DNA from: Candidatus Latescibacterota bacterium
GTDB lineage: Bacteria; Latescibacterota; UBA2968; GCA-2709665
DNA: 64,000 nt
Reading direction: 5' to 3'
NCBI GenBank assembly: GCA_965222075.1
Contig: OZ244937.1
Location: 1,760,001-1,824,000 of the forward strand
In this document: in pieces, positions 4,127-64,000 of the stretch
Layout: each line of letters begins with the position of its first letter
Numbering within the stretch: the stretch's first letter is position 1
Translations under genes and position numbers: made by a program
The notes under the pieces: model-generated
Told to the model about the DNA's origin: nothing
The model's database searches: none
What the model saw: the letters and a program-made list of their open reading frames with translations, nothing else

Positions 4127-5449
4127 ATGATTACGAAAATTGAGATCGGAGGCTACCGGCTCCTCGACGAGTTTGAGGCAGACTTCAAGCCGCTGACAGT
4201 GGTGATCGGCGCAAATGCCGTCGGCAAAAGTACGCTGATCGATTGTCTGCAACTGATTGCCGAGTGTTGCGAGGTTCCCCTGAATACCGCGATTGGGTTG
4301 CATTATGGGGCAGCGTCCCTTCTTACGTCAGGGAACGGGAATGGGCAATTGACCTGGAACATCACTTTTCATGAGCCCACCACGTGGGATGCTTTGCCAT
4401 TGGAACACGAAGAGCCTCTGGTGTATGAGGTCGTTCTTCAGGCCGACCCACAGGGCCAGATGCACCCGCAATACGAGGTTCTCAGGACTCAAGAGCCAAG
4501 ACAGGGATACAGCAACCCCCTCAAGTTTCTGGAGGTGACCCCGTATCGACGGCATATATTCGACAGAACAAAGCACCGATTGATACCGTTTGATGAAACG
4601 CAATCCGCACCTGATGTTGTCCGCGATGCCGATTCAGCGGCAGCCCCGCCGAGGAGCGGAGGAACAGGCCTGCCTGCAGCGCAGGGCACTGCGCAGGCAG
4701 GCGCACAACAGGAGGCCGCGCTGCTGCTATCACAAATCCGATTCTTCAACGAGTTTCCCGTTCCTTCCTGGGTACGCGTTCTATTGGCGAATATGGCGTT
4801 CTATCCGGGTTTCGATGTGACACGGTCTTCCACGCTTCGCACCAGGGCCGCCGATATCAAACCAATTACAAGATTATCGGCTAACGGCGACAACCTGGGT
4901 ACCGTGCTGCACGAAATCCTGACCCGATACGATTACCGGTCAGCAGCAGAGGAGTTGCGCGATTTTCTGCGCGTAGCCTATCCCGCATTTGAGGACATCC
5001 ATTGCGATACCACCTATGGAACGCCGCCGCAAGTGCTCGCTGTGGTGCGCGAGAAAGGCATGTCCCGCTCCATGAATCTGTGGGATCTTTCGGACGGCAT
5101 GCTGCGATTCCTTTGCCTGGCGACAGCTCTGTTGAATCCGCAACCTCTGCCACTGGTAGCGATTGACGAACCGGAATTGGGTTTGCATCCCGGTCTGTTG
5201 CCGATTGTGGCGGAAATGATCAAGACAGCGGCGGAGCGCACCCAGGTGCTCGTGACGACACACAGCCCGGATTTGCTCAACTGCTTTGACATAGCCGATG
5301 TTGCCGTGATGGCGCGGAATGCAGACGACGCAAAGGTCGCGTGGCATCGTCCCGCGAACCGTAAGACGCTTGTGCAAATGCTCGAAAACGTTACTGATGA
5401 AACCCTTGGCGACCTGCACCGCTCCGGCGAACTGGAGGCGGTTGTATGA
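4127..5449 (+). CDS. AAA/ABC-type ATPase (AAA_21/AbiEii/OLD-like)
   Basis: Walker A GANAVGKS, LSDG signature, IDEPELGLHP, TTHS. Confidence 0.88.
   Translation: MITKIEIGGYRLLDEFEADFKPLTVVIGANAVGKSTLIDCLQLIAECCEVPLNTAIGLHYGAASLLTSGNGNGQLTWNITFHEPTTWDALPLEHEEPLVYEVVLQADPQGQMHPQYEVLRTQEPRQGYSNPLKFLEVTPYRRHIFDRTKHRLIPFDETQSAPDVVRDADSAAAPPRSGGTGLPAAQGTAQAGAQQEAALLLSQIRFFNEFPVPSWVRVLLANMAFYPGFDVTRSSTLRTRAADIKPITRLSANGDNLGTVLHEILTRYDYRSAAEELRDFLRVAYPAFEDIHCDTTYGTPPQVLAVVREKGMSRSMNLWDLSDGMLRFLCLATALLNPQPLPLVAIDEPELGLHPGLLPIVAEMIKTAAERTQVLVTTHSPDLLNCFDIADVAVMARNADDAKVAWHRPANRKTLVQMLENVTDETLGDLHRSGELEAVV
4669..4701. repeat. 33-bp palindromic element CCTGCCTGC...GCAGGCAGG, in-frame in the AAA ATPase
   Basis: CCTGCCTGCAGCGCAGGGCACTGCGCAGGCAGG encodes LPAAQGTAQA. 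Confidence 0.85.
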
Positions 5450-5535
5450 AACGGTGGAATTCACCTAAGCAACGCAGATCCCACCAGTATACCGGCAAAA
5501 CTCATCGCATATAGGCAAGAAGAGGAAGCACAATT

Positions 5536-6393
5536 ATGGATCATCGCATAGAAATCAATCGAAGGAACTGGAACGAGCGCACCCCTGTTCATGCCGCCTC
5601 TGAATTCTACGATGTGGCGGGATTCCGCAATGGTCAGATAACGCTGAACGACATAGAAAGAACTGAAGTGGGCTCCGTTGAAGGCAAGTCCCTTCTGCAC
5701 CTCCAGTGTCATTTTGGCATGGACACTATGTCGTGGGCCCGCTTGGGCGCGCAGGCGACAGGGGTTGACATCTCAGACGCCGCGATCGATTTAGCGCAGG
5801 CACTGAATGATGAACTTCAATTGAATACTCGGTTTATCCGTTCCAATGTCTACGACCTGCCCGATGTGCTGGATGAAGAGTTCGACATCGTATACATGGT
5901 TATGGGCGTGCTCTGCTGGTTGCCAGATTTGTCTGAATGGGCGCATATCATCGCCAGATTTCTCAAGCCCAACGGTATTTTCTACATCTTGGATGGCCAC
6001 CCGTTCTCGCACGTATTTGAATCTGAAGAGAACCAGGCTGGAGTTCAAGAACTACGAGTGCGATACCCATACTTCAAAAAAACCGAAGGTGAGTTCTACG
6101 AAGGTGGTAACCACAGTTATGCGGGTTCGGGCATAATAGAAGCTGGGTGTTACGAGTGGCAGCACAGCGTTGGTGAGATACTGAATGCCATCCTGGATGC
6201 TGGATTGCGGATCCAGTTCTTCCACGAGTTTGCACACAGTGGCTATAAAGCTTTTTCGTGCATGGAAAAAGGCAGGGATGGCTGGTGGCGGCTTACATCG
6301 CACAACGACTCAGTCCCACAATTATTCTCGCTGAAGGCGACTAATGGTCGATTTCGCAAATACACATGCAGAAGTGGCGAAAAAGGTGGGTAG
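5536..6393 (+). CDS. Class I SAM-dependent methyltransferase
   Basis: NRRNWNER, LLHLQCHFGMDT, GVDIS, FDIVY, LKPNGIFY. Confidence 0.9.
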   Translation: MDHRIEINRRNWNERTPVHAASEFYDVAGFRNGQITLNDIERTEVGSVEGKSLLHLQCHFGMDTMSWARLGAQATGVDISDAAIDLAQALNDELQLNTRFIRSNVYDLPDVLDEEFDIVYMVMGVLCWLPDLSEWAHIIARFLKPNGIFYILDGHPFSHVFESEENQAGVQELRVRYPYFKKTEGEFYEGGNHSYAGSGIIEAGCYEWQHSVGEILNAILDAGLRIQFFHEFAHSGYKAFSCMEKGRDGWWRLTSHNDSVPQLFSLKATNGRFRKYTCRSGEKGG

Positions 6394-6457
6394 AAGAAGG
6401 CTTCACTTTGGATGATCTTCCCCGCAGTGGGCGATGCCGTCTGCGCCAAAGCGGCTC

Positions 6458-6570
6458 CCATTACTCCCCCCTTGAGGGGGAGTCGGCAAGGCAGGGGCAC
6501 CAGCCCGCAGCGGTCGATACCTGGCGGGAATTCACGGCCCCCCCTCATTACTCCCCCCCCAGGGGGGAAT
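6458..6570. repeat. Intergenic REP-like repeat (CATTACTCCCCCC-N-GGGGGAGTC hairpins), two units
   Basis: Units at 6458-6490 and 6546-6570; related sequence at 9728-9827 (inverted) and 61409-61458. Confidence 0.75.
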
Positions 6571-6665
6571 GGAAAAACCGCGGGCTTCGACCCGCATCTC
6601 CCCACTTGCTGCTTTAGCCGCATGACAGGCATTTCGGCAACAGCATCCTAAACGGGGGAACTCCA

Positions 6666-7523: not shown

Positions 7524-7713
7524 GTTTGCGCGGGCACTCAATCCCCAGGTTCACCTATACTCAAGCCCCTTGGCTGGAAACACCCGAGTTTTTCGACGAA
7601 CATCGATCTGGCGTCCTCCCGCTTCACCCGGATCAGGAGTTGCCCTGTTGGTTCAATAACCGCGCACGCCACAGGAGGGGACAATGCAAAATGAGACACG
7701 CTCCTTCAGTGGC

Positions 7714-9536: not shown

Positions 9537-9727
9537 TGCGTACCTCCATTTCCAATTAAAGTGACGCGTTCAAAGTTCAAGGTTCAGCCCAGGCACGGTT
9601 TTCGCTCGCGCTCGGGAACTCACCAGGAATTTTAAAACAGTTGTCATGCGCCCCTCTGGGGCACCCATTATGATGAAAATGGTTGCGCAACAGACTTGTG
9701 TGGTAACCGTACACGCCCGCGCACACA

Positions 9728-10053: not shown

Positions 10054-10265
10054 TTTCGGCCTTTTTCCTGGGCGGGCAACGAACGTCAACTTGCCGCTTC
10101 ACCTCCTCCGCCTTTCTCCCCCTTTCCTCTCAGGAAAGGGGGCCGGGGGGATAGGTCACTATACCGCAACACATCCACCGGGTTCGCCCGCTCCGAATGG
10201 ACCACTTAAACACAATAAACACAATAAATTACGTTACAATCTGAAAGGTTATTTTCTAAGCAGCC

Positions 10266-10880
10266 TTAAAACTCGATCCCCTCTCGTGCCGGCGTCCCCC
10301 TGGCGTAATAATGCTTCACCTTCCGCATCTCGGTCACCAGGTCCACGCGCGCCACCAGCGCGTCCCACACCTTGTGGCCCGACAGCACCAGCTCACACCG
10401 CCGCTTTGCATCATAGAGGTCCAGCAGCCGCATCACATCCTCCCGTGCCAGCAGGTCGTAGACCACGCCCGCCAGGATTTCATCCAGAACCAGCAGGTCC
10501 TGCTCCCCCTCCCGGATCAACCGCTCGGCGATCTCCAGCCCCCGCCTGGCCTCCTTCACATCCTCCTCCTCCGCCCCAAACCGGAACGACCCGTCGGGCA
10601 TCATCCGCTCACAGCCCGTCGGATAGAGGTCAATCCCGTCCAGTTTCCGGAGGACATGCCGCTCGGAATAGTGCTCGTGCACGCCGTCGTAGCCCTTATC
10701 GAACTGGACCAGGGCCACCTTGTGGCCAGCCCCCAGCGCACGCACGGCTAAGCCCACACAGCAGGTCGTTTTCCCCTTCCCATACCCATAGTAGGCGTGG
10801 ACCTGATGGACCTTTTCTCCACCCTTTGCAGGCGGAATCACGCGGGGGCCGGTCGCCCTCCTCGGTCGATCTTCTGTCAT
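10266..10880 (-). CDS. cobO: Cob(I)yrinic acid a,c-diamide adenosyltransferase (CobO/BtuR)
   Basis: YYGYGKGKTT, VQFDKG, LVLDEI, ELVLSG, DLVTEMRKVKHYY...AREGIEF. Confidence 0.9.
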   Translation of the reverse strand: MTEDRPRRATGPRVIPPAKGGEKVHQVHAYYGYGKGKTTCCVGLAVRALGAGHKVALVQFDKGYDGVHEHYSERHVLRKLDGIDLYPTGCERMMPDGSFRFGAEEEDVKEARRGLEIAERLIREGEQDLLVLDEILAGVVYDLLAREDVMRLLDLYDAKRRCELVLSGHKVWDALVARVDLVTEMRKVKHYYARGTPAREGIEF

Positions 10881-10900: not shown

Positions 10901-10933
10901 CCTGCCTGCCGAGCCGAGCTCGGCGCAGGCAGG
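10901..10933. repeat. 33-bp palindromic element CCTGCCTGC...GCAGGCAGG, intergenic
   Basis: CCTGCCTGCCGAGCCGAGCTCGGCGCAGGCAGG. Confidence 0.85.
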
Positions 10934-10937
10934 CGCA

Positions 10938-12218
10938 TCAGCCGCTGTGGCCGAAAAGCCTCGCAAATATAACAAAATCTCCGAAATTCACCCGTCCGTC
11001 GCCGTCCAGATCGAACTTCGGAGCCCAGTCAGGCGATTCCGGCCCGGTGCCGAAGGCCCGGGCAAACGCCGCAAAATCCCCGAAATCCACATCCCCATCT
11101 CCGTCGAAATCGGCGACCGTCGCATCCTCCAGGAAGGCGATAAAATTGGGCGGCAGCCCCGTTGAAATCGGCCCGGCTACCAGCGTATCGGCCGATGTGT
11201 CATAAACCCGGAGCCCCACCGTCTCCGGACTCTCGGGTCTACCCTGGTCCAAAACATAGAGCCGCCCCTTCAGTGCCCCAATCGCCGGTGTAAACCCGCC
11301 CGAAGTCCCCGGCAGCGGTGCCGACACCGATCCCGCCGCCAGGTTAAACCCCCTCACGCTGTTCACGAACGAGGCGTCGTCGGCCACCACCACATAGCCC
11401 CGGTCCTGCGACACCATCGCAAAGGCGCCAGCATCCCCACCCAGGTCAACTTCGCTCAGCAGAACCCCCTCCGATCGGTTGTTCTGAAGGTCCAGCACCT
11501 CGATGCCTCCATCCAGCGCGCCGCGCCTCCCCAAGCACGACAGATAGAGCTTTGCGCCCACCCGCACCTGTCCGCCGAAGGGGTTGCTGGCCTGAAGCAC
11601 AATCCCCTGAGTCCCGTCCCGCGTCGAATCCAGGTCGATCACGGTATCCGTATTCACATCCACGACCACCACCTCGCTTCGGTCGGTTGGCGGCCAAAAT
11701 GGCTCGTCCCGATCCAGCCGCTGGCAGGTCACGTAGAGGCGCCCGTCGAAAATCGTCAGGAATGTTGCCTCGGGCAACCCGTCCGCGTCGGCCACAAAAG
11801 AAAGGTCAACACCCCCCAGCGAATCCCCCGTCGCCGGGTTCACCACCAGCACCCGTTCCGATTTCAACCGCGACACATAGGCCTTCGTCTCACTTGCAAA
11901 AGCGATATGCTGAGGGTTGGAACCGTTTCCCACGGAAAACTGGAGCACCGGTGTGGTCAGATCGTCCGGATCGAGCACCAGGATATTATCCTGTCCCAGA
12001 CGATTGACCACATAAATCTTACCTCGATAGGTTTGAACCGATGCATCGCTGTGGATATTGAGCAGGTTTACCGTCGCCTGGTGGGTCTCCAGGTTCACGA
12101 CTGCAAAACTCCCGCTGCTGAAATCCGTCGTCGTCAAGATGGCTCGATCCCCTGCCCATGCACCCACAGCATTCAATCCCATCACGACAAAACCGATAAA
12201 CAGCCCCCAAAACTTCAT
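10938..12218 (-). CDS. Secreted YncE-like beta-propeller (putative cobamide-binding) with C-terminal EF-hand/dockerin-like domain
   Basis: Signal peptide MKFWG...AWA; propeller repeats (IYVVNRLG, GSNPQHIAF, KAYVS); two DFDGDGxVxFxDF motifs; located in the B12 riboswitch operon. Confidence 0.8.
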   Translation of the reverse strand: MKFWGLFIGFVVMGLNAVGAWAGDRAILTTTDFSSGSFAVVNLETHQATVNLLNIHSDASVQTYRGKIYVVNRLGQDNILVLDPDDLTTPVLQFSVGNGSNPQHIAFASETKAYVSRLKSERVLVVNPATGDSLGGVDLSFVADADGLPEATFLTIFDGRLYVTCQRLDRDEPFWPPTDRSEVVVVDVNTDTVIDLDSTRDGTQGIVLQASNPFGGQVRVGAKLYLSCLGRRGALDGGIEVLDLQNNRSEGVLLSEVDLGGDAGAFAMVSQDRGYVVVADDASFVNSVRGFNLAAGSVSAPLPGTSGGFTPAIGALKGRLYVLDQGRPESPETVGLRVYDTSADTLVAGPISTGLPPNFIAFLEDATVADFDGDGDVDFGDFAAFARAFGTGPESPDWAPKFDLDGDGRVNFGDFVIFARLFGHSG

Positions 12219-12256
12219 ATCTTCCCTCCACAATAACTGTTGATGGGTCAACTCGT

Positions 12257-14479: not shown

Positions 14480-14536
14480 GAAATCTCCATCCCAACCCGC
14501 ATCACGAAACCCCGGAAGTCCATTACAATTCTCCCA

Positions 14537-14575
14537 CAAACAAAAATCCCCAGCCTCGCAACCGAGGCCGGGGAT
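14537..14575 (-). terminator. Intrinsic terminator/attenuator in the btuB leader
   Basis: Minus strand ATCCCCGGCCTCGGTTGCGAGGCTGGGGAT followed by TTTTGTTTGT. Confidence 0.7.
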
Positions 14576-14642
14576 ACAGGTAGGACACACATCACCACCT
14601 TGGCTTCCCGGTCCACGAGGAAGATCAACAAAGGTACTCAAG

Positions 14643-14812
14643 CTCAGGCAGGTCTTCTGGCTTCCGGATCATCTGCCTTCTCACACCTTCCCAGCCGGTC
14701 ATTTCGGCCAGTGGTCTGTTGTGGAAGGCATCCCCGGTCACAGCGGCGGGCCCGCGACGGAATTTCACCGTCTTCCCTCTTCGGCCCCCAAAGGGGGACA
14801 ACCTGAACTACC
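14643..14812 (-). ncRNA. Cobalamin riboswitch
   Basis: Minus strand AAGAGGGAAGACGGTGAAATTCCGTCGCGGGCCCGCCGCTGT...GACCACTG...GGGAAGG...AAGCCAGAAGACCTGCC (B12 box). Confidence 0.95.
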
Positions 14813-14843
14813 GAATGGCAATATCAAAGATCGAACGTGTTCA

Positions 14844-54737: not shown

Positions 54738-54814
54738 TCTCCGATCGGGACCTGACCCCCTTCCCCCTTTTCTGAGGGGAGCAAGCCCTTATCCCAAAGT
54801 ACGTTATAGGGGGG

Positions 54815-57088
54815 TTATTCCCTCACCCCAATAATCTCCGACACCTCCTGCTGCAGCTTCACCAGGTTGTAAAACGCCCCCTGCCGCTCCATCAGCTCTT
54901 CGTGCGTGCCCACCTCCACGATGCGCCCACCCTCCAGAACCACCAGGCGGTCTGCATTCCGAAGCGTCGACAATCGGTGCGCGATCGCAAACGTCGTCCG
55001 GCCCATCACCAGCTGACCAATTGCCTCCTGGATCTGCAACTCCGTCTGCACGTCTACGGAAGAGGTCGCCTCGTCTAAGATCAGGATCTTCGGATCGTGC
55101 AGGATCGCACGCGCAAGCGACACCCGCTGCTTCTCTCCGCCCGACAGATTGTTGCCACGCTCGCCCACCTGCGTGTCGTAGCCGTCCGGCCTGGCCACGA
55201 TAAAATCGTGCGCCCGCGCTGACATGGCCGCACCTACAATCTCTTCGAAATCCGCCCCGGGCTTCCCATACCCGATGTTCTCTGCAATCGTCCCGCTGAA
55301 CAGGAACGGCTCCTGAAGCACGATCCCGATCTGGGAGCGCAGGTCCTCCAGGCGGACCTTCCGGATATCCACCCCATCGATCTCGATGCCGCCCCGGTCC
55401 ACATCGTAGAACCGGCAGATCAGGTTCACCGTCGTCGTCTTGCCCACCCCCGATTTGCCCACCAGCCCGATCATCTCTCCCGGCGCCACCTCTAAGTCGA
55501 TTTCGTAGAGCACCGGCTTGCTCTTGTCGTATCCAAACGTCACCTCCCGGAATCTCACATGCCCTTTCATGTCGGACATCGACGCCGCGTCCGGGTCCTG
55601 GTAGGCCTCCGGCGGGGTGTCCAGCACTTCAAAGATCCGCTCGGCGCCGACAAAGGCCCGGATCATCCAGCTGTTGACCATCCCGAACCACTCCAGAGGG
55701 CCGTAGAGCAGCCACATATAGTTGTAGAACGCCAGCAGCGTGCCCAGCGTCAGCGTGCCCCCGATGACCTCCTGCCCGCCGAACATCCAGACGATCAACA
55801 CCCCCAGGCCGGTCAGAAAGCTCATCGTGGTAAAGAAGACCGCCCGGTTGACCTCCGACCGCACCGCCGCCCGGGTCAGGTTGGCGTTATGCGCCTCGAA
55901 CACTTCGACCTCCCGGTCCTCCTGCGCAAACGCCTTCACCACCCGGATGCCGGAAAGAACCTCGTTGACCCGGGCCATCCAGATCGACCAGGCCTGCATC
56001 CACTTGGTGAAAAAGAGCCGCATCCGCTTCCAGAATATGCGCCCCCAGGCCAGAATCAGCGGAATCGGCAGCAGCACGTAGAGCGTCAACTGCCAGCTCA
56101 TGACCAACAGCACCACCAGGATGCCCAGCAGCAGCAGTCCGTTGATCACCAGATAGGGCAGCCCATCCACCAGAAAATCCTGCAGGCGGTCGCTGTCCCG
56201 CGTCACCCGGGACATCACCGCGCCCACCTTCCGCTTGTCGTAGAACTGCAGCGAGAGCAGCTCCAGCCGCCTGTAGAGCTGGCTGCGGATATCGGTCGTT
56301 ACCCGCGCGCCCAGCCAGGTGATCGTCCAGCCGTGCAGCCACTCCGCCCCCCATGTCAGCAGCCGCACCCCCACCAGCACCAGCACCAGCAGCCCCAGCA
56401 GCCCCACCCGGTCCACGCCCTCCAAAGACACTCCCTCAGGTGGCACCAGCACCCCGTCCACAATCCGCCTGGTAATCAGCGGCGGTATCAGCTCGGCCAC
56501 CGTCGTCAGGATCGATGCGAACGCCAGCAGGGCCGTGCGTCCTTTGTAGGGACTCAGATATTTCGCAATCCGCCCCAGCACGGCCAGCTTCCGGATGCAG
56601 GCCGGGCAGATCCCGTCCTTCTCGGGCAGAAGCCGGCCGCATTTTTCACACCGCGTCCGTTCCAGCTTCGACCGGATCAGAAGAGGCTCGGCCTTCCGGA
56701 GCTGCTCGATCCCCCGGGCCACCTCGGAAAACTTCAGCGCCTGGGTGTGTGAGTAGGGCACGGTGACCGTGGGCCGGTCCTTCCGCTCGATCTCCAACCG
56801 CGCGCCCCCCACCAGCGGCTCGGTGCGGGCCAGGGTCACCTCCTCGATCGGGACCTCCACGACGCCCCTTCCATTCCCACCTGCCTGCGCGGCGCTGTCG
56901 CACCGCGCTGCAGGCAGGTCGGAAAAGACCAGAATACGCTTCCCCGTCACCACCACCCACTGCGTGCCGTAGTCTCCCCGGGCGTCTAAGTCCGAAGACA
57001 CCCGGATCAGCTCCTCCTCGTCTCCCGGAAGCATCGCTTCAAGCATCGCTTCAAGCCCGTTGGCCGCCGGTTCCAGCAATCGGTTCAC
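54815..57088 (-). CDS. ABC exporter paralog (fused TMD-NBD) with N-terminal extension and Zn-ribbon
   Basis: CEKCGRLLPEKDGICPAC, GKSGVGKTT, LSGGEKQR, ILDEATSS. Confidence 0.92.
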   Translation of the reverse strand: MNRLLEPAANGLEAMLEAMLPGDEEELIRVSSDLDARGDYGTQWVVVTGKRILVFSDLPAARCDSAAQAGGNGRGVVEVPIEEVTLARTEPLVGGARLEIERKDRPTVTVPYSHTQALKFSEVARGIEQLRKAEPLLIRSKLERTRCEKCGRLLPEKDGICPACIRKLAVLGRIAKYLSPYKGRTALLAFASILTTVAELIPPLITRRIVDGVLVPPEGVSLEGVDRVGLLGLLVLVLVGVRLLTWGAEWLHGWTITWLGARVTTDIRSQLYRRLELLSLQFYDKRKVGAVMSRVTRDSDRLQDFLVDGLPYLVINGLLLLGILVVLLVMSWQLTLYVLLPIPLILAWGRIFWKRMRLFFTKWMQAWSIWMARVNEVLSGIRVVKAFAQEDREVEVFEAHNANLTRAAVRSEVNRAVFFTTMSFLTGLGVLIVWMFGGQEVIGGTLTLGTLLAFYNYMWLLYGPLEWFGMVNSWMIRAFVGAERIFEVLDTPPEAYQDPDAASMSDMKGHVRFREVTFGYDKSKPVLYEIDLEVAPGEMIGLVGKSGVGKTTTVNLICRFYDVDRGGIEIDGVDIRKVRLEDLRSQIGIVLQEPFLFSGTIAENIGYGKPGADFEEIVGAAMSARAHDFIVARPDGYDTQVGERGNNLSGGEKQRVSLARAILHDPKILILDEATSSVDVQTELQIQEAIGQLVMGRTTFAIAHRLSTLRNADRLVVLEGGRIVEVGTHEELMERQGAFYNLVKLQQEVSEIIGVRE
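56880..56918. repeat. 39-bp palindromic element CCTGCCTGC...GCAGGCAGG, in-frame in the ABC exporter
   Basis: CCTGCCTGCGCGGCGCTGTCGCACCGCGCTGCAGGCAGG encodes LPAARCDSAAQA; absent from the adjacent paralog. Confidence 0.9.
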
Positions 57089-57252
57089 ACCAAAATCCTC
57101 CGTCCGTGTCTTTATCTATCGGACTTACGTCGTCCCCTTCGTGTTTCAGATTTCAGCAATGATCGCCCACAAAAAATCACGGCATCCCTCCGGCGCCGTG
57201 GAATGATAAGTCGTTAAAATACAACTCAGGGAGTGGGAAGAACCCCCATGCC

Positions 57253-58155
57253 TCAGGTCAGCTGCGCCCAGTCGCCCCCCACCTCGTCGAACCGCCTGCA
57301 GAACTCCGCCACCACCTCGTCTGCAATGGGCATCTCGTTCTCCAAGAGCCGGATATTGTCCACCAGGTGCTCGGGATTGGTCGTCCCCACCAGGGCGACG
57401 TCGATCTCGGAGCGGGCAAGCGTAAAGCCGAGCGCCGTAAGAATCCGATTCTCGGGTGCACCGGGAATCGGGCCGAGGGACATCACCTTCTCAACCCGCT
57501 CGTAAATCTTCGAAAACTGCACCGTCGTACCGGCTGTTTCCGTTGAGCCGCCCCAGGTCCCATTGGCGATGGTCCGCTTCACGATAACCCCCACATTCGC
57601 CTCGCGCGCATGCGGAAACAGCCTTGTGCGGGCGCGTTGATCCACCACATTGAAACTCGTCTGAAGCGTATCGAACAGACCGCTGTCAACCGCCCACCTG
57701 GCCGCCTCATTGTCGCCGCTGTACCCCACAAAGCGCGTCTTCCCCGCGTCCCGGGCTTCCAGCAACGCACCGATCACCTCGCCCCGCTCCAGCACGTCCA
57801 CATCGCATGAATGGATCTGCACCAGGTCTACGTAGTCCGTCCGAAGCCTTTGCAGGCTGCGGTCGATGTGTTCCCTGACCGTCTCGGCGGTCCAGGGCAC
57901 TTCCGCGGCCCAGTGCCCGCACTTGGTCGCCAGGACGCATTCGCTGCGGCGGTGCGAAACCGCCCGGCCGATCAGCTCCTCACTGTTGCGATAACTCGCC
58001 GCGGTATCCAAAAAGTTGATCCCGTTATCCAGCGCAGCATGGATCAGCGCGTCCACCCTGTCCACGTCGTCCAGTGAGAAGGCGCCGATCTGGGCCAGCC
58101 CAAGCCCCAGGCGGCTGACCTCAAGCCCTGTTTTTCCCAGAACCCTGCGTTCCAT
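57253..58155 (-). CDS. Aldo/keto reductase
   Basis: MERRVLGKTGLEVSRLGLG, GINFLDTAASY, LATKCG, SLQRLRTDYVDLVQIH. Confidence 0.92.
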   Translation of the reverse strand: MERRVLGKTGLEVSRLGLGLAQIGAFSLDDVDRVDALIHAALDNGINFLDTAASYRNSEELIGRAVSHRRSECVLATKCGHWAAEVPWTAETVREHIDRSLQRLRTDYVDLVQIHSCDVDVLERGEVIGALLEARDAGKTRFVGYSGDNEAARWAVDSGLFDTLQTSFNVVDQRARTRLFPHAREANVGVIVKRTIANGTWGGSTETAGTTVQFSKIYERVEKVMSLGPIPGAPENRILTALGFTLARSEIDVALVGTTNPEHLVDNIRLLENEMPIADEVVAEFCRRFDEVGGDWAQLT

Positions 58156-58193
58156 ATTGCCCTCCCTTTCATAAACCCTGTATTCCGCCTTTC

Positions 58194-58838
58194 CTACCTC
58201 ACCAGTTCCACCGTCCCCCACAGGCTGGGATCGTACGACACCGGCAACGGCTCGTCCGCGGTCCAGAACTGGCGGCCCAACTTCCGGTCCTTCAGCAGAT
58301 ACGTAAACCCCAGACGGTTGTTCTCCTCCGGGTCGAACCCCCGAAGCGCCTCCGCCGGCAGGTGGATTTCCATCCGGTACCCGGTCCGGGTCACCTTCGA
58401 CGCCACCCCGAGCCGGCGCGGATCGCACGGTTTCCCCTGCGCTCTCGCCCGCCGGATGCGCGCCTGTCCCCCCACCGGCTTCCGGCTCCCCCTTCCCGGC
58501 AGAAAATAGAAATGATGGCAATACCGGCTGGCCCGGTGGGCGTCCCGTACATCCCGCGTATCCACCCAGATCTCCAGCCCATCCCCTTTCAACGGCCGCT
58601 CCGTCTGCACATCCATCCCCGCCGCCTTCCGGACGTGGACTGCAAAATACAGCCCCGCGTCGTTCCAGGCCATATAAAAATCTGCAAACGGCTTCCCCCC
58701 CTCCACCTCCATCAGATCGGGCACCCGAAATCCCTCGTCCCAGTCTTTCAGGTCTCCATCCAGCACCGGAGCGTCTGCCCGGAAAGGGCACGCGAAGGCG
58801 AAGTTAAAAAAGGCGCGTTTTGGGATCGACAGTTTCAT
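58194..58838 (-). CDS. CBM9/DOMON-like domain protein
   Basis: PVLDGDLKDW, MAWNDAGLYFAV, DGLEIWVDT, YRMEIHLP, PSLWG. Confidence 0.75.
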   Translation of the reverse strand: MKLSIPKRAFFNFAFACPFRADAPVLDGDLKDWDEGFRVPDLMEVEGGKPFADFYMAWNDAGLYFAVHVRKAAGMDVQTERPLKGDGLEIWVDTRDVRDAHRASRYCHHFYFLPGRGSRKPVGGQARIRRARAQGKPCDPRRLGVASKVTRTGYRMEIHLPAEALRGFDPEENNRLGFTYLLKDRKLGRQFWTADEPLPVSYDPSLWGTVELVR

Positions 58839-58853
58839 AGGGCCGGCTCCTCG

Positions 58854-60074
58854 TCAGTCGCGCTTAGCTCCCAAATCTTCGTCTTCGCGGATCAGATTGC
58901 CGGCCTCGTGTGTAATCCCCGAGTTTTCCATCACATTGCCACGGATCAGAATCGGTCGGTTGGTGCCGGTCTGGTCGTTCACAATCAGTTCAACGTTTTT
59001 GAAATGGTTGCCGGTGACCGCCATGCCGGCGCCTGTGAGCCACAAAGGAAGGCGCTCTTCCCCGTCGTGCCCCCGGATCACATTCCCCGTCACAGACGTG
59101 TCGAAGCCCCGCACATCCATCGCCAGCCCCAGCTGGCCGCCGCCATCCACAACGACGATATTATTGGCGATGACATGCCGTTCGGAATCGGCCCAGGAGC
59201 GGAAGGCGATATCCAGATCCCCATTCTCCCTCACGTGGACGATGTTGTTGGACATCACGATCGAATTCCCGGCATCGGACCCGACCGCAACATGCGTGCG
59301 CCCGGTGATCTCCACGTAGTTCCCCATAACGAACCCGGGACCGGTCAGAAGCTCGACCGCATCCGACATCGCGTTGCCCAGACGATTGTTGACCACCCGC
59401 AGGTTGCGGCCCTGGAGCATAATGCCAAGACGCTGGGCATTGAGAACGGTACAGTTCTCGATCGTGATATCATGGTTGGGCTCGGGACAGGATCCGCCCG
59501 GTTCGGCGCAGAATGCCTTGATGCCGCAATACTCAAACCGCCCGTGCGAGATATTGCGAAACTCGGCCCCGTTGTAAGGATTCTGGTCCCGGTTCTGGTC
59601 CACCCAGAGGTCGCGAATCGTGATATTGCCCACGCCATTGCCGATGATGCGGATCACATTCGTATTCTGATTCGGGGCCAGAATCAACCGTGTGGCCGAG
59701 CCCTGGCCGGCCAGGGTCACATCGCTGCGGTCGATGATCAGCCCGCCCAGCTTTCCCTCCACCTTGCGGATGTCGTAGACGCCCTCCATGAGTGTCACGG
59801 TACCGCCGACCGGCGGAAGGGCTTTGATCGCGGCGTAAATCTCCTCCTGATCCCCAACGCCGTCGCCCACAAAATCGGCAGCGGCCTTCGACTTCTCCGA
59901 TGAATTCTCCGTTGCGACAATCATCGTTCTTCCCTGTGTCTGAGATGAAAAACTGAGGATGGAAGAAAGTGCCACGACCAGGACTGCCGTCTTTGTCCAT
60001 CCGGGATGCCCATGTTCAGACCGTTTCGCACAGGCCACTTTTCCATGATCCGAAATCAATCTTACCCCTCGCAT
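58854..60074 (-). CDS. Right-handed parallel beta-helix protein (pectate lyase/NosD-like), start uncertain
   Basis: ADFVGDGVGDQEEIYAAI...GGTVTLMEGVY, repeated V.gN.I strands. Confidence 0.75.
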   Translation of the reverse strand: MRGVRLISDHGKVACAKRSEHGHPGWTKTAVLVVALSSILSFSSQTQGRTMIVATENSSEKSKAAADFVGDGVGDQEEIYAAIKALPPVGGTVTLMEGVYDIRKVEGKLGGLIIDRSDVTLAGQGSATRLILAPNQNTNVIRIIGNGVGNITIRDLWVDQNRDQNPYNGAEFRNISHGRFEYCGIKAFCAEPGGSCPEPNHDITIENCTVLNAQRLGIMLQGRNLRVVNNRLGNAMSDAVELLTGPGFVMGNYVEITGRTHVAVGSDAGNSIVMSNNIVHVRENGDLDIAFRSWADSERHVIANNIVVVDGGGQLGLAMDVRGFDTSVTGNVIRGHDGEERLPLWLTGAGMAVTGNHFKNVELIVNDQTGTNRPILIRGNVMENSGITHEAGNLIREDEDLGAKRD

Positions 60075-60078
60075 TCCT

Positions 60079-61149
60079 CTACCTCTTCTTCAAACAGAAC
60101 AGATATTCCTCCACGCGGTCTGCCTTATAAACCCGGTTCTCCCGGTCCGTATCCGCCCGAAAACGCTGGTAATCCCGTATCACCACATCCACCTCACCGT
60201 ATTGACCGATCATTTGCAAAATCTCATCCTTAGCCATAATCCCCTCACTGTTATAGCTGAGGAATACATACCGTGCCGATGTCTTTTTAACCATATCCTC
60301 AAGTGCGGGTAACGCCCGTTTTTTCGTACAGAAATCTGACTTCTGTCCATCGTACGGCCTCAATCCGGTCACGCCTTTCAAGTCCGGGTCGTCGTACCGG
60401 GCAATTGTCTCCAGCACGTGGTAATTCGCACAGTACTGGCGCTGATTATAGGGAGGATCCATATAGAGCACGTCACAAAATAGACGCTCAACCAGCTGTT
60501 GCCCATTCTCATTGTATACTTCGTGGTCCTCATCGCTCCGGACAATTGCAGGCCGCTCCAGATGCAGGGGCTTCATCGCGCTTTTCTTGATATGCTTCAA
60601 AAATGCCCCATAAACCGACGCCGTATTTGCAACCTTATCCACCGCGTCAATCAAGCTCGCCAGAAGGTAAAAGTACTCATCCTCCGTCAGCTTTCCTTCC
60701 TCTCGCCACACCTCAATCTGCATCCGGACCGCGTCGCACCGTTTGCCGTTCTCGTCCGAGAAATACTGGCGTTTGAACGCTGAGCCTGCCGTCCCGCCCG
60801 GGCAATAATTGCGATAGACGAACCCGGCTTTTCCTTTCAGCGTATTGAGGTGTTCCAGCACAACATCGATAGCATCGTAAAACAGTGCCGTCCGAATGAC
60901 TTTTAATTCCTTGAGAATCCCAGAAAATTCCGGCACCTTATTCATCCTCACAAGCGCCCGGTTGAGACAATAGGCATAATACTGGATGTCGTTGGCGACA
61001 ATTCGGAACCCCTGCTGTTTGAAGTGCCACCCCACAATCCCGGTGCCTGCAAAAAGGTCCAAAAACACCCGGCTGTCGGAATCAACCTTTTTCAGAATAC
61101 CCTTTTCGAGAAAGTGAAGGAGGGAATATTTGCTTCCAATATAATTCAT
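60079..61149 (-). CDS. D12-class N6-adenine DNA methyltransferase, M.NlaIII/M.HpyI-like
   Basis: MNYIGSK, DLFAGTGIVG, KVANTASVYGAFLK, LYMDPPYN.RQY.ANYH, FLSYNSEG. Confidence 0.88.
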   Translation of the reverse strand: MNYIGSKYSLLHFLEKGILKKVDSDSRVFLDLFAGTGIVGWHFKQQGFRIVANDIQYYAYCLNRALVRMNKVPEFSGILKELKVIRTALFYDAIDVVLEHLNTLKGKAGFVYRNYCPGGTAGSAFKRQYFSDENGKRCDAVRMQIEVWREEGKLTEDEYFYLLASLIDAVDKVANTASVYGAFLKHIKKSAMKPLHLERPAIVRSDEDHEVYNENGQQLVERLFCDVLYMDPPYNQRQYCANYHVLETIARYDDPDLKGVTGLRPYDGQKSDFCTKKRALPALEDMVKKTSARYVFLSYNSEGIMAKDEILQMIGQYGEVDVVIRDYQRFRADTDRENRVYKADRVEEYLFCLKKR

Positions 61150-61217
61150 GCATCCCTTTCAGAACACCATTTGTTGATCCTGCTGCTGCTTAGAAAATAA
61201 CCTTTCTTTTGTTCTTG

Positions 61218-61249
61218 GCCTTTTTCTTGCACGCCCAAGAAAAAGGCCG
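61218..61249. repeat. Intergenic inverted repeat
   Basis: GGCCTTTTTCTTG-CACGCC-CAAGAAAAAGGCC. Confidence 0.6.
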
Positions 61250-61408
61250 AAAAAGAAGGGCGCCGCTCAGACGCCGCGGGGGCTGCTTTTCCGCGAATTG
61301 CCCCTGTGGTGTAAGCAGGCGTTTGTGCCCTGCGGACCTTTGGGGCGTTTTTGGGCGCAGGTGCTGGGGGGATCTGCGCGGAAAAGCCCCTTCACCCCGC
61401 ACCAAACC

Positions 61409-61458
61409 GGGGGAGTCGGCAAGCCAGGCGCGCCGGTGGGGGGATCGCAGAGGCGAAA
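61409..61458. repeat. Intergenic composite REP-like repeat
   Basis: GGGGGAGTCGGCAAG identical to 6476-6490; GGATCGCAGAGGCGAAA is the reverse complement of 9728-9744. Confidence 0.75.
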
Positions 61459-61499
61459 CGCGTGAGCACAGGGCCAAATTTTCGCATTTTTTGAAAAGA

Positions 61500-64000
61500 C
61501 TACCCTCTCCCCAGCACCCCTCTCAAAAACCGTCCCGTGTGCGATCCCTCCACCTGAGCAACCTCTTCGGGCGTGCCGACCGCCACCATATATCCCCCCT
61601 CGTCGCCGCCCTCCGGCCCCAGGTCGATCACCCAGTCCGCCGTCTTGATCACATCCAGGTTGTGCTCAATCACGATCACCGTATTTCCGGCATTGACCAG
61701 CCGATTGAGCACCTCCAGCAGTTTCTGGATATCCGCAACGTGCAGCCCTGTGGTCGGCTCGTCCAGGAGGTAGACCGTCTGCCCGGTATTCGGACGGGAA
61801 AGTTCCCTGGCCAGCTTCACCCGCTGCGCCTCCCCCCCCGACAGCATCGTGGACGCCTGGCCCAGCACCATATAGCCCAGGCCCACATCCTCCAGCGTCT
61901 GCAGGAACCGGCGTGCCTTCGGCACATTTTCGAAATGCAGCAGCGCCTGTGACACCGTCATCTCCAGCACATCTGAGATCGACCGCTCCCGGAACCGCAC
62001 CTCCAGCACGTCCCGGTTGAAGCGCTTTCCGCTGCACACCTCGCATGTCACCCACACATCGGACAGAAAGTGCATCTCGATGCACCGGGAGCCCAGCCCC
62101 TCGCACGCCTCGCAACGCCCTTTGCGGCTGTTGAAACTGAAGGCCCCCGCCTTGAACCCCCGCACCTGGGCCTCCGGGAGCTGGCTGTAGAGCCGCCGGA
62201 CCTCATCGAACAGCTTCACGTACGTGGCCGGGTTGCTCCGGAGCGAAAACCCGATCGGCGTCTGGTCGATATTGATCACCTTGTCGACCAACTCCAGCCC
62301 CCTGACTTCGTCCCCCCACGCCCCGGACGCCTGGTTAACCCCTGCCGCAAGCGCCCCGAAAAGCACATCGTTCACCAGCGAACTCTTGCCCGACCCCGAC
62401 ACCCCGGTCACGCACGTCAGCGTCCCCAGCGGAAAGCGCACGTCCAGGTCCTTCAGGTTGTTGTGGTGGACGCCGGCCACCTCCAGGGCCTTCCCGTTTG
62501 CAGGCCGCCGCCTGGACGGCACCCGGATCGCCAGCTTCCCCTTGAGGTACTGCGCCGTCAGAGACCCCTTTCGCACGCTCAGCCGCCCGGGTGAATTGGC
62601 GGCCACCACCTGCCCCCCCTCTCTCCCAGCGCCCGGCCCGAAATCCAGGATGTGGTCCGCCGCCTCCAGCGTCTCCCGGTCGTGCTCCACCACCACCAGC
62701 GTATTGCCCAGGTCCCGCAGCCGCTTCAGCGCCGTCAGCAGCCGCTGGTTGTCCCTCTGGTGCAGCCCGATCGTGGGCTCGTCCAGCACGTAGAGCACCC
62801 CGGTCAGCCCGGAACCGATCTGGCTCGCCAGCCGGATACGCTGCGCCTCTCCGCCCGACAGCGTCGGTGCCCGCCGCGAAAGCGTCAGATAGCCCAGCCC
62901 GACCTCATCCAAAAACCACAGCCGGCTCCGGATCTCGTGCAGCACCTCCCCGGCGGCCGCCTGTTCCCGGGGTCCCAGCGCCATCTCCTCGAACCAGGCC
63001 CGGGCCTCTGCAATCGACAGATCCGCCGTCTGGGGCAGCGTCTTGTCCCGCAGCCGGACCGCAGCGCTCACCCGCTTCAGCCGCATTCCCTGGCAGGACG
63101 GACAGGGCACATCCTGCACGAACGCTCCCAGCCCCTTCCGAAACCCGGGCGACAGGCGGACGAGCGCCTCCACGGTGGGGAACAGCCCCCGGTACTGGAA
63201 CCTCAGCCCCCCCGGCCCGTTGATCCATTTATCCCCCAGCCCGTAGAGCAGCGCCTCCACCGCTTTATCGGGCATCTCGGACACCGGCGTGCGCAGGTCA
63301 AATCCAGCCTCCCGGCCCACTGCCGTCAACAGATCCAGCAGCTTCCCGGACAGCAGCCCCCAGGCCGTCACCGCCCCTTCCAGCAGCGACCGCTTCGGAT
63401 CGGGAATCAGCGTATTTTTCCCCATCCCCCGCTGTGTCCCCAGCCCCTCGCAGACCGGGCACCAGCCCTCCGGGCTGTTGAAGGACAGCCGCTGCGGCGT
63501 CACCTCGTCAAAGCTCTGTCCGCAGGAAGCGCATGAGAGGTGCTGGCTGAACCGCGTCTCCTCCTCTCCGTCCGCTACCACCACCACCCCGCCCGACAGG
63601 TCCAGCGCCGCCTTCACGGAATCGGCAATCCGCTTTCGCGCCGACCGCTTCAGCGTGATGCGGTCCACCAGGATCTCCAGCCGGTGCGTCTGCCGGTAGT
63701 CGATCTCCACCGGCGTCTTTAAGAGGAACACCTTCCCGTCCAGCCGCCCCCGCAGATACCCCTCCCGCCGCGCCCGCTCGATCAGCATCTCGTAGTCCTC
63801 TCCCCGCTCCGGCTCCCGGGGCGCCAGCAGGTAAAGCAGGCGCCTGCCTGCCGAGTCGCCTGCCTGCGCCGAGTTCTGCTCGGCAGGCAGGGCGCAGGCA
63901 GGTCCCTCCGGCATCTGCACCACGCGGTCTACGATCTCCTGTGCCGACTGCGCCCCGGCCGCCACCTCGCAATCGGGACAGATCACCTCCCCCAGCAGCG
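61500..64000 (-). CDS. uvrA: Excinuclease ABC subunit A (5' end outside the window)
   Basis: SFNSPEGWCPVCEG, LSGGEAQRIRLASQIGSGLTGVLYVLDEPTIGLH, TGVSGSGKSSL, DLGPEGGDEGG, SHTG. Confidence 0.96.
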   Translation of the reverse strand, partial: LLGEVICPDCEVAAGAQSAQEIVDRVVQMPEGPACALPAEQNSAQAGDSAGRRLLYLLAPREPERGEDYEMLIERARREGYLRGRLDGKVFLLKTPVEIDYRQTHRLEILVDRITLKRSARKRIADSVKAALDLSGGVVVVADGEEETRFSQHLSCASCGQSFDEVTPQRLSFNSPEGWCPVCEGLGTQRGMGKNTLIPDPKRSLLEGAVTAWGLLSGKLLDLLTAVGREAGFDLRTPVSEMPDKAVEALLYGLGDKWINGPGGLRFQYRGLFPTVEALVRLSPGFRKGLGAFVQDVPCPSCQGMRLKRVSAAVRLRDKTLPQTADLSIAEARAWFEEMALGPREQAAAGEVLHEIRSRLWFLDEVGLGYLTLSRRAPTLSGGEAQRIRLASQIGSGLTGVLYVLDEPTIGLHQRDNQRLLTALKRLRDLGNTLVVVEHDRETLEAADHILDFGPGAGREGGQVVAANSPGRLSVRKGSLTAQYLKGKLAIRVPSRRRPANGKALEVAGVHHNNLKDLDVRFPLGTLTCVTGVSGSGKSSLVNDVLFGALAAGVNQASGAWGDEVRGLELVDKVINIDQTPIGFSLRSNPATYVKLFDEVRRLYSQLPEAQVRGFKAGAFSFNSRKGRCEACEGLGSRCIEMHFLSDVWVTCEVCSGKRFNRDVLEVRFRERSISDVLEMTVSQALLHFENVPKARRFLQTLEDVGLGYMVLGQASTMLSGGEAQRVKLARELSRPNTGQTVYLLDEPTTGLHVADIQKLLEVLNRLVNAGNTVIVIEHNLDVIKTADWVIDLGPEGGDEGGYMVAVGTPEEVAQVEGSHTGRFLRGVLGRG
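63843..63902. repeat. Nested palindromic elements (27-bp outer + 33-bp inner at 63859-63891), in-frame in uvrA
   Basis: CCTGCCTGCCGAGTCG[CCTGCCTGCGCCGAGTTCTGCTCGGCAGGCAGG]GCGCAGGCAGG encodes PACALPAEQNSAQAGDSAGR. Confidence 0.9.

Follow-up and report, generated by a model that had tools for sequence, protein, structure and literature searches.

What are the short palindromes that lie in frame inside unrelated genes across the window (the whole 64,000-nucleotide stretch of DNA analysed here), and how did they come to be there? The initial annotation had reported five copies with constant inverted ends around variable hairpins, and we recovered exactly these five matches, compared with none in 100 dinucleotide-preserving shuffles. 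The copies and their host open reading frames (ORFs) are as follows.

4097..5449, plus strand: AAA_21/AAA_15 ATPase ORF, 450 aa, host of the 4669-4701 copy
4669..4701, minus strand: 33-bp hairpin copy, canonical CCTGCCTGCGC...GCAGGCAGG on the minus strand, in frame in the ATPase ORF
10901..10933, minus strand: 33-bp hairpin copy, intergenic
54815..57088, minus strand: ABC exporter ORF (ABC_membrane + ABC_tran), 757 aa, host of the 39-bp copy
56880..56918, plus strand: 39-bp copy, a variant whose inner stem is longer, within the ABC exporter ORF and in frame
61500..64000, minus strand: UvrA-type ORF running out of the window, host of the composite
63843..63902, plus strand: 60-bp composite made of a 27-bp copy (63843-63858 and 63892-63902) that encloses a 33-bp copy, in frame within the UvrA-type gene
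63859..63891, plus strand: 33-bp copy nested in the composite, reading in canonical form on the plus strand

The copy in the ATPase ORF would read in frame as GLPAAQGTAQAG, and the intergenic copy lies in a 57-bp spacer that separates the stop of the minus-strand ORF 10938-12314 from the start of ORF 10266-10880, which is likewise a minus-strand ORF. The UvrA-type ORF is, in the full genome, one 1922-aa frame with two UvrA units. Its insert had been described as 27 + 33 bp; the span was correct, but the two copies are not side by side, the 33-bp copy being nested within the 27-bp copy (DNA fold of the inner copy -13.8 kcal/mol, z = -4.35). The uninterrupted 27-mer and an identical 33-mer are each found elsewhere in the genome, and the 60-bp composite occurs at two more loci whose flanks are unrelated, in one case as a slightly altered version.

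Genome-wide, the modal unit is 33 bp, CCTGCCTGCGC-N4-N5-N4-GCAGGCAGG, and consists in order of CCTGCCTGC, GC, a 4-bp variable stem, a 5-nt loop, the stem's second half and GCAGGCAGG; shorter, longer and nested versions are also present. On one strand, CCTGCCT-GC-GCNNNN-N5-NNNNGC-AGGCAGG fits 76 of 76 genome copies, and the one-sided GC is kept in 96 of 130 hits from other genomes and viral contigs. The 76 exact 33-mers compare with none for a back-to-front control, placing the motif, as with the window shuffles, beyond chance. Paired loci number 115 in the genome, rising to 293 with one mismatch allowed per end. The proposal that the stems vary yet stay paired was borne out: across 62 distinct copies from many genomes, the inner four pairs covary with changes on both sides (0 of 500 shuffles reach the score), the nine outer pairs being uninformative because rows were chosen by their fixed ends. 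As DNA, the hairpins fold with energies of -14 to -24 kcal/mol (z -2.8 to -4.4). Like a REP, the unit is an imperfect palindrome within the 20-40 bp size range and is dispersed in many copies; its ends are paired 9-mers, with no unpaired GTAG or CGTC tag at the end of the stem-loop, and copies are mostly singlets or nested, with few pairs less than 1 kb apart and inverted doublets not the main form. One repeat of about 130 bp bears a hairpin copy and then a T-rich run, giving it a terminator-like look.

Comparison of eight sites with relatives yielded six exact empty sites without target duplication, at PurL (33 bp), uvrA (60 bp), the ABC exporter (39 bp), the spacer copy (33 bp), UvrD-like copy 1 (36 bp) and hydantoinase (33 bp). 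Within the window, the same-genus genome G001 lacks exactly 33 bp at 10901-10933 and exactly 39 bp at 56880-56918, and exactly 60 bp of the uvrA composite are missing in G001, G004 and G003; the PurL copy is missing from 21 of 21 orthologues. At 4669-4701, the nearest homologues, in G003 and G002, are without the hairpin, with a gap of 30 bp in a diverged stretch and no clean empty site. The clean presence and absence expected from orthologue comparison was therefore seen at six of the eight sites and not at the other two, and the reported lack of a target-site duplication held at every exact empty site.

The 39-bp site is also polymorphic within a species, as read from assembled contigs of public runs: contigs of X9 and X13, at >99% identity over 6 kb, join 56879 to 56919, and contigs of X3 and X5 carry the copy. 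The junction joins ttccca to tcggaa with no flanking direct repeat, and the boundary of gain or loss, from which we took the exact ends of the element, falls exactly at the palindrome's outer C and G, with no duplication and no scar. Insertion and exact excision cannot be told apart at this site, and the 39-bp variant has no second genome copy as a potential donor. Site preference is weak, C-R preceding the canonical strand and Y-C-K-G following it, which on the other strand reads as a weak C-M-G-R before (66 distinct flanks).

Copy number ranges from 0 to 76 among 21 same-family genomes; G001 has copies missing from G000, and one copy is common to both at the same site. Across the phylum, 19 of 168 genomes have a match, nearly all in that same family, and five genomes from records titled Lentisphaerae, Desulfarculaceae, Nitrospira, Thiorhodospira and Verrucomicrobiota hold 5 to 40 copies, the 40 being in Thiorhodospira sibirica ATCC 700588 (record title). 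Identical termini occur in at least six phyla. Together, presence and absence between and within species, the nesting of copies within one another, patchy copy number and cross-phylum spread support the conclusion that the hairpin is a mobile, non-autonomous unit.

To place the copies relative to genes, we used a rough codon-usage gene caller written for this analysis. By these rough calls, 53 of the 115 paired loci (about 46%) are inside predicted genes, 20 of the 53 near ORF ends, and 62 lie between genes, compared with 15% of the genome being intergenic (p = 1e-21). The claim that every length is a multiple of three holds for the five window copies but not genome-wide, where 96 of the 115 paired loci comply, mostly owing to a basic unit that measures 33 bp in intergenic copies too. 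When lengths other than 33 bp were tabulated by location, as the initial annotation had proposed, 17 of 21 genic loci were multiples of three compared with 14 of 29 intergenic loci (p = 0.037). Reading-frame use was 30/15/12 (p = 0.007), and 72 of 76 copies are open, with no stop, in all six frames. These results support the conclusion that genic copies keep frame.

Genic copies are randomly oriented in their host genes (17 sense, 19 antisense), and the 40 tandem, 12 divergent and 7 convergent intergenic copies compare with 66, 19 and 15% of spacer bases. Intergenic copies track the amount of spacer DNA, and orientation is unbiased relative both to the host gene and to replication; there is no sign of a regulatory role, and the family looks selfish or neutral, not regulatory.

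We conclude that the window copies are probably a REP-like, non-autonomous mobile hairpin. Since 33 bp cannot encode anything, an enzyme made elsewhere would move it, and the best fit would be a structure-specific single-stranded-DNA enzyme like the HUH/Y1 proteins that mobilize IS200/IS605 elements and REPs, as suggested by the need for a hairpin, the short site preference and the lack of duplication. A copy that happens to enter a tolerant gene loop would add only about 11 residues and so persist, its survival in genes being favored by a unit that is a multiple of three and nearly always stop-free in six frames; copies of other lengths would be filtered out of genes. The one copy modelled for loop placement, the 39-bp copy of the ABC exporter, is consistent with such a course: the exporter's N-terminal domain is conserved as protein, and its 13 added residues (DLPAARCDSAAQA) are predicted to occupy a loop in the N-terminal beta domain, flanked by strands predicted at 51-56 and 76-80, and pLDDT is <50 at residues 60-73.

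The initial proposal of a minimal hairpin moved in trans stands as regards mobility and non-autonomy, but no enzyme acting in trans was found. Among Y1/RAYT, DUF559 and TnpB genes we found no cognate transposase (no TnpB was found at all), and no recurrent gene is bracketed by copies, the 10 bracketed genes in the genome being unrelated to one another. As no HUH/Y1 enzyme is tied to the family, the mover may be of another kind, undescribed or housekeeping. One could go further and suppose that the palindrome spreads without any dedicated transposase, relying on the host's replication or repair machinery or on a class of enzyme so far unconnected with repeats. Dependence on host functions would explain the occurrence in many phyla, with identical termini in at least six, and the same has been said in print of the CGTC REPs, which "apparently lack a dedicated transposase" (PMC3733652, abstract). 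We regard this as rather unlikely, however, as scar-free, exact gain or loss without a flanking direct repeat is hard to achieve by slippage or end joining, and the range from 0 to 76 copies in close relatives, whose housekeeping genes are shared, points to a factor that some of them lack.

Also unlikely is a standard REP/REPIN family whose mobility is supplied by a RAYT of its own, as in the GTAG REP-RAYT system, with the cognate RAYT missed or recently lost. Size, hairpin, multiple copies, intragenic copies (uvrA, UvrD-like) and patchiness match what the accessible portions of PMC3733652 and PMC3116915 describe, and RAYT-like genes are present in this genome and in the high-copy same-family genomes G002, G009 and G021; in G021, one hairpin copy lies 7 bp past the stop of a RAYT-like gene, and a degenerate look-alike hairpin lies about 150 bp upstream of a decayed IS200 in the genome. 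Yet the motif-flanked RAYT or IS200-like tnpA sought on the initial annotation's advice did not appear. The genome's RAYT-like gene (genome positions 3242107-3242869) is flanked by GTAG-type REPs instead, its intact IS200 has end hairpins that differ from the 33-bp hairpin, all three of its Y1-type loci bear other hairpins, and different repeats flank every RAYT-like locus inspected in relatives. Y1_Tnp gene numbers do not track copy number across 41 relatives (G019 has 26 copies and no Y1 match, G004 has 32 Y1 genes and no copy), and none of 16 Y1 loci in the five carriers from other phyla has the motif within 1.5 kb. The paired, untagged 9-mer ends and the prevalence of singlets or nested copies over inverted doublets likewise argue against this reading.

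The constant part of the hairpin, two inverted 9-mers, is operator-like, which raises the idea that the copies serve a DNA-binding protein or a selfish cassette as dispersed binding sites, each built from two inverted 9-bp half-sites and retained through that use. This is quite improbable, given that a duplex-binding protein does not require the inner stem to covary, that the 10 bracketed genes are mutually unrelated, and that placement follows spacer DNA with no promoter link and half of the copies inside genes. Even less probable is an element acting at the RNA level (a protein-binding hairpin, terminator, translational bypass site or micro-intron), an alternative that the initial annotation had raised. 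The stability of the hairpin as DNA and the terminator-like 130-bp repeat would agree with it, whereas the random orientation in host genes, the absence of enrichment at the 3' ends of genes or in convergent spacers and the lack of a matching Rfam family do not; judged from the letters of the genome, the open, multiple-of-three lengths of variant genic copies would fit translation, arguing against bypass or micro-introns, and would be needless in a segment that is skipped or spliced. Nor do the copies fit a MITE, a DDE-transposase derivative with a target-site duplication and with terminal inverted repeats flanking a non-palindromic core: neither the six exact empty sites nor the polymorphic one shows a duplication.

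Several known systems resemble the REP-like mobile hairpin. Rickettsia palindromic elements were reportedly described by Ogata et al. in 2000 as selfish palindromes in frame in genes that stay functional; they share with the hairpin in-frame insertion into host genes that remain open, but RPE-1 measures roughly 100-150 bp and is restricted to Rickettsia, whereas the hairpin is 33 bp and occurs in several phyla. The Nostoc small dispersed repeats of Elhai et al. (2008) are said to be 21-27 nt, hairpin-forming, present in genes and nested, with marks of mobility; they differ in sequence and have a cyanobacterial host range. IS608-type transposition has a lagging-strand bias, and our copies show no strand bias relative to replication (42 leading, 34 lagging; p = 0.42). 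IS200/IS605 elements have two different end hairpins and tnpA and insert on the 3' side of a fixed tetra- or pentanucleotide, unlike the 33-bp element with its one hairpin, no gene and weak site motif. Some traits of IS200/IS605-type elements and their miniatures (no duplication, hairpin ends, exact excision) are nevertheless found in the hairpin, and "peel and paste" by IS608 is likewise described, in the text available, as hairpin-dependent, with no target duplication, a short specific site and exact excision (PMC3116915). From the same partial source, REPINs and RAYTs (Bertels and Rainey 2011, PMC3116915) offer a further likeness, as non-autonomous hairpin DNA thought to move single-stranded, with insertion into or beside existing copies and excision seen by population sequencing. 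A REPIN, however, is described there as a REP doublet of about 100 bp tied to a single-copy RAYT with the same flanking REPs; here there is one 33-bp hairpin, and no such single-copy RAYT flanked by the repeat (a REPtron) was found in the genome, its relatives or the five other carriers.

The closest parallel was missing from the list in the initial annotation. REPs of 20-40 bp inside genes, notably uvrA, uvrB, uvrD, polA and recBCD, were described in 2013, with Rickettsia RPE-4 and RPE-6 among such small intragenic REPs and with a CGTC class, lacking its own transposase, in which stems measure 8-9 bp and loops 4-5 nt (Di Nocera, De Gregorio and Rocco, PMC3733652, as far as its available text goes). 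Like these GTAG/CGTC REPs, ours are 20-40 bp multi-copy stem-loops with hosts that include uvrA and a UvrD-like helicase, uneven among close relatives and found in distant phyla. In comparison with the account in that available text, the hairpin differs in having no unpaired tag and no CCA tail, a constant part made of a paired 9-bp stem plus the one-sided GC, singlet or nested copies in place of head-to-head dimers, about 46% of paired loci inside predicted genes, and exact within-species polymorphism. Small REPs in genes, including uvrA and uvrD, are therefore already in print (PMC3733652), and what is new is the untagged, RAYT-less variant.

What moves REP-like repeats without a transposase of their own was a question already raised in 2013 for the CGTC class (PMC3733652, available part). 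The present family may make it testable, with base-exact ends from natural alleles, a length of only 33 bp and strain-level activity, to which multi-copy presence under a culture-collection strain title (Thiorhodospira sibirica ATCC 700588) adds. It also offers a clean natural case of selfish DNA adding short loops to proteins, and a caution for annotation, as in-frame hairpin inserts are neither errors nor frameshifts.

The family has spread across phyla, with phages as possible carriers. More tentatively, the hairpins might form a third, untagged REP-like super-family, with termini that match letter for letter across at least six phyla, one 33-nt hairpin, exact cut-and-paste or copy, no RAYT, a housekeeping or undescribed mover and carriage by phages, still writing loops of 10-20 residues into proteins, DNA-repair enzymes included, within living species. 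Copies are present in 11 viral contigs, in two of them inside a capsid-fusion ORF.

A pattern search of the window for CCTGCCTGC-N(5-35)-GCAGGCAGG returned five matches, reproducing every coordinate of the five copies in the initial annotation, and 0 of 100 dinucleotide-preserving shuffles of the window contained a match. Across the single 5.36-Mb contig (59% G+C) in which the window occupies bases 1,760,001-1,824,000, the two end 9-mers occur 233 and 246 times. They form 143 left-then-right pairs within 60 bp, overlapping pairs included, of which 76 span exactly 33 bp, and the reverse order occurs once genome-wide; clustering gave 115 paired loci plus 204 clusters keeping one kind of end, and tolerating one mismatch per end gave 293 loci.

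Features of the hairpin family
Hairpin unit: CCTGCCTGCGC-N13-GCAGGCAGG
Peptide segment predicted for the hairpin insert: VFSDLPAARCDSAAQAGGNGR
4669-4701: copy in an AAA ATPase gene
10901-10933: copy in a spacer
56880-56918: copy in an ABC exporter gene
63843-63902: nested copy in uvrA

All 76 exact 33-mers, read on the proper strand, fit CCTGCCT-GC-GCNNNN-NNNNN-NNNNGC-AGGCAGG, with a left end of 11 nt, a right end of 9 nt, a loop of 5 nt and a variable inner stem, which is longer in the 39-bp copy at 56880-56918. They comprise 34 distinct sequences, the commonest occurring 22 times in 17 different flanks. In an alignment of 62 distinct copies from the window, other genomes and viral contigs, four inner pairs vary on both sides (24 cells), and the observed covariation was reached by 0 of 500 shuffles, bearing out the proposal that the stems vary yet stay paired; the nine outer pairs are uninformative on covariation because the aligned rows were chosen by their ends. 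The family is real, and the hairpin is maintained by compensatory change. As single-stranded DNA the copies are predicted to fold at -14 to -24 kcal/mol (z -2.8 to -4.4). Strand-specific G.T wobble, considered as a clue to the folding strand (33 vs 12 by copies), was rejected because the signal is gone on distinct sequences (6 vs 10; 15 vs 17).

We compared eight hairpin sites with the genomes of relatives and found clean empty sites at six of them. The 33 bp in PurL are missing in 21 of 21 orthologues found among 21 relatives, and in the alignment with G001 (same genus, 95% protein identity) the gap coincides exactly with these 33 bp; a second, degenerate copy of 21 bp lies 20 bp further on. 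Exactly 60 bp are missing from uvrA in G001 and in two further relatives, G004 and G003, while G001 lacks exactly 39 bp in the ABC exporter and exactly 33 bp at the spacer copy at 10901. G001 and G004 both lack exactly the 36 bp of the first copy in the UvrD-like helicase and exactly the 33 bp of the hydantoinase copy. The expectation that orthologues would be cleanly empty held at these six sites but not at the AAA ATPase, whose homologues were found only in G003 and G002 and show a 30-bp gap within a diverged stretch, or at the second UvrD-like copy, where a 24-bp gap is not clean. For one further host gene, L002, neither G001 nor G004 gave a match. G001 itself carries six hairpin copies, one at the same site as in the window's genome and two missing from the window's genome, though not cleanly. 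No target-site duplication was found at any of the eight compared sites.

The ABC-exporter copy is also polymorphic in nature. Several public studies cover this stretch, and we placed contigs of four sequencing runs (X3, X5, X9 and X13) on window 54500-64000. Contigs from X3 (7.5 kb) and X5 (5.8 kb) are continuous through 56880-56918, whereas those from X13 (6.3 kb) and X9 (9.1 kb) join 56879 to 56919 as consecutive letters and show only 41 and 20 further differences, respectively. In the empty allele, ttccca is followed directly by tcggaa, and, since the element begins and ends with letters unlike those next to it, its extent is exactly CCTGCCTGC...GCAGGCAGG. The contig comparison reveals neither duplication nor scar, in agreement with the absence of target-site duplication noted in the initial annotation. 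Exact, duplication-free presence and absence therefore occurs both between and within species, and this base-exact natural polymorphism within a gene is the main interest of the family. The 39-bp polymorphism is either a recent insertion or an exact excision; the genome holds no second copy of the 39-bp variant. At uvrA the run contigs break within the repeat, and polymorphism scoring covers the ABC-exporter copy. Nearby, 61157-61473 is a high-copy repeat that matches dozens of stretches of G001, G002 and G003 at 80-94%, with a summed contig depth of 800-5400 vs 5-130 in most adjacent bins, and a breakpoint for contigs of all four runs.

The N-terminal 260 residues of the ABC exporter are conserved at the protein level in eight orthologues and paralogues, and the 13 inserted residues are missing in 8 of 8. 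A structure model of moderate quality (mean pLDDT 67.6) places the insert after strand 51-56 and before strand 76-80; residues 60-73 score below 50 in pLDDT. Judged from sequence and model, this insert appears to be truly coding, and the inserts in general would be translated.

Genes were called by a purpose-made codon-usage score (3,832 genes, 85% of the genome), so that the genic and intergenic counts are approximate.

Placement and length of the paired loci
Well-scoring ORFs, away from ends: 33 loci, 31 multiples of three
Weak ORFs or close to ORF ends: 20 loci, 18 multiples of three
Intergenic: 62 loci, 47 multiples of three

That every length is a multiple of three is true of the five window copies; genome-wide it holds at 96 of the 115 paired loci. 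Intergenic DNA is strongly preferred (54% of the 115 loci vs 15% of bases), and, as the 33-bp mode is also found between genes, the multiple-of-three length is in the first place intrinsic to the element. Among non-33 lengths, however, multiples of three make up 17/21 genic vs 14/29 intergenic loci (p = 0.037); a length filter on genic copies is visible beyond the effect of the 33-bp unit. Stop codons are absent in all six frames from 72 of the 76 33-mer copies, and genic copies are read as xLPA....QAG (30), PAC....AGR (15) or CL....RQA (12), an uneven use of the three frames (p = 0.007). The host genes are mutually unrelated, including PurL, UvrA, a UvrD-like helicase with two copies, hydantoinase, HsdR, sigma-54 activators, a gingipain-like protease and a TPP enzyme. 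Window 8001-64000 has an unusually strong negative GC skew (-0.12 to -0.25 per 4 kb), and its minus strand carries most genes.

The uvrA copy is a 33-mer within a 27-mer, and this composite was found again at two other loci with unrelated flanks. A repeat of ~130 bp also carries the hairpin, in 13 copies (genome 391139, 1155662 and 11 other sites), one of which holds an extra nested 27-bp copy that its twelve sisters lack; the hairpin is either a passenger of this larger repeat or the repeat is a longer form of the element. In the ~130-bp repeat a T-rich run comes after the single 33-bp copy, which gives it a terminator-like look.

Exact 33-mers number from 0 to 76 across 41 relatives, and close kin differ (G001 4, G002 53, G003 68, G009 75, G021 65, G004-G008 0), as does the dominant inner stem between genomes. 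A scan of the phylum found matches in 19 of 168 genomes: 14 come from the window's own family, which has 21 other genomes in the set, and four come from other families, where no genome has more than 3 copies. In a one-genome-per-species scan the pattern appeared in records titled as many phyla, in at least 118 stretches, and the same one-sided GC was seen in 96 of 130 hits among the matches listed. Outside the phylum, five genomes have 5, 7, 16, 19 and 40 copies, with 0 for a control pattern; the record with 40 is titled Thiorhodospira sibirica ATCC 700588. The hairpin's confinement to one family of the phylum, taken together with its presence in distant phyla, points to horizontal acquisition. 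Eleven viral contigs carry one copy each, in two related ones in frame within an ORF ending in a capsid domain, beside a portal gene, and phages may be carriers of the hairpin.

Nesting and patchy, cross-phylum spread are observed and, with exact presence/absence, favor the proposal of a mobile hairpin; in genes the frame is kept. As for a mover in trans, no RAYT or IS200 was tied to the family in this genome, its relatives or the carriers. We rejected the intact IS200 of this genome, which has its own, different hairpins, and a broken IS200 has a degenerate look-alike ~150 bp upstream; an IS200 TnpA is encoded at genome 2071937-2072296. The 254-aa RAYT-like gene (genome 3242107-3242869) was rejected for the GTAG-type repeats on both its sides; genome 3241500-3243000, where it lies between identical ~130-bp blocks of GTAG-type hairpins in direct orientation, is REPtron-like in the classical sense but belongs to another repeat family. 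Y1_Tnp counts did not track hairpin copy number in 41 relatives, whose RAYT-like genes have other repeats at their flanks; one RAYT-like gene in G021 has a hairpin copy right after its stop. The motif lay within 1.5 kb of 0 of 16 Y1 loci in five carriers from other phyla. In one relative (L208 of G013, 500-2800), and also at L205 and L206, RAYT-like genes form tandem arrays of ~890-bp units, each with a 20-nt hairpin containing CCTGTCTGC at its bounds; despite its likeness to the family's end, this hairpin is a different element. In G002, G020, G021 and G003, open frames of 1200-1440 aa include a Y1_Tnp-like stretch that covers part of the profile (positions 40-121), and three of these genomes have a small RAYT-like gene 10-15 kb away.

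Other candidates were likewise set aside. Tandem DUF559 (Vsr-like) nuclease cassettes (genome 3758900-3760450 and 3773900-3774520) have other hairpins at their flanks in this genome; at both sites the same pair of GC-rich hairpins forms the bounds, after the stop of an FtsX-like permease. TnpB (PF07282) is absent from this genome. The 10 genes bracketed by two copies are mutually unrelated, and include a sigma-70 factor, two sigma-54 activators, a methylase-like protein and a DDE transposase; the sigma-70 gene, between two 19-bp copies, is not a transposase. Near the copies in viral contigs, ORFs encode only portal, capsid, tail and unrelated domains, with no candidate mover.

The reading we favor is that a structure-specific enzyme, acting in trans, moves the hairpin on single-stranded DNA, the hairpin being probably selfish rather than useful. 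The observation in the initial annotation is confirmed and its interpretation partly supported. The flank preference is weak (C-R before the canonical strand, Y-C-K-G after) and already there in empty sites, and the copies show no orientation bias with respect to host gene (17:19) or replication (42:34). Spread of the hairpin without a dedicated enzyme is an unlikely rival, in keeping with the search for a mover but hard to reconcile with the exactness of the empty sites. A binding site is less likely still, as the inner stems stay paired by compensatory change. An RNA element is the least likely; a terminator or 3'-end placement was rejected, as intergenic copies show no excess at gene 3' ends and track the distribution of spacer DNA, and Rfam at gathering score gave a cobalamin riboswitch as the sole match in the window and none for the hairpin. 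An ordinary REP driven by a RAYT is about as unlikely as spread without a dedicated enzyme, given the comparison with described classes.

In-frame small palindromes are a known kind: Di Nocera et al. 2013 reported 20-40 bp REPs with a GTAG or CGTC tag in >80 species of 8 phyla, the CGTC class being without transposase (PMC3733652), and Bertels and Rainey 2011 reported REPINs, RAYTs and excision detected in population reads (PMC3116915). Unlike the former, the present family lacks the tag, and unlike the REPIN-RAYT system it has no RAYT tied to it, so that it does not fit these classes. It is a new form of the REP kind, untagged and RAYT-less. The motif was not found in a relevant context in the literature searched, though the REP-encoded peptides tabulated with PMC3733652 may include a similar family; passages of a 2026 preprint on non-coding elements do not treat the family.

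The UvrA-type gene at 61500-64000 and beyond (genome 1821500-1827268) is a single 1922-aa open frame in which two complete UvrA units, and two sets of UvrA_inter and UvrA_DNA-bind stretches, can be recognized; it resembles a double UvrA formed by fusion. Three further families of short repeats lie at 9599-9641, 10100-10265 and 6369-6511; the 42-bp family has >20 perfect copies in G001, many of them where contigs end, and a 67-bp family has >40 copies in G004. The cobalamin riboswitch (14630-14821, minus strand, 133.9 bits) lies just upstream of a 794-aa ORF at 12257-14641.
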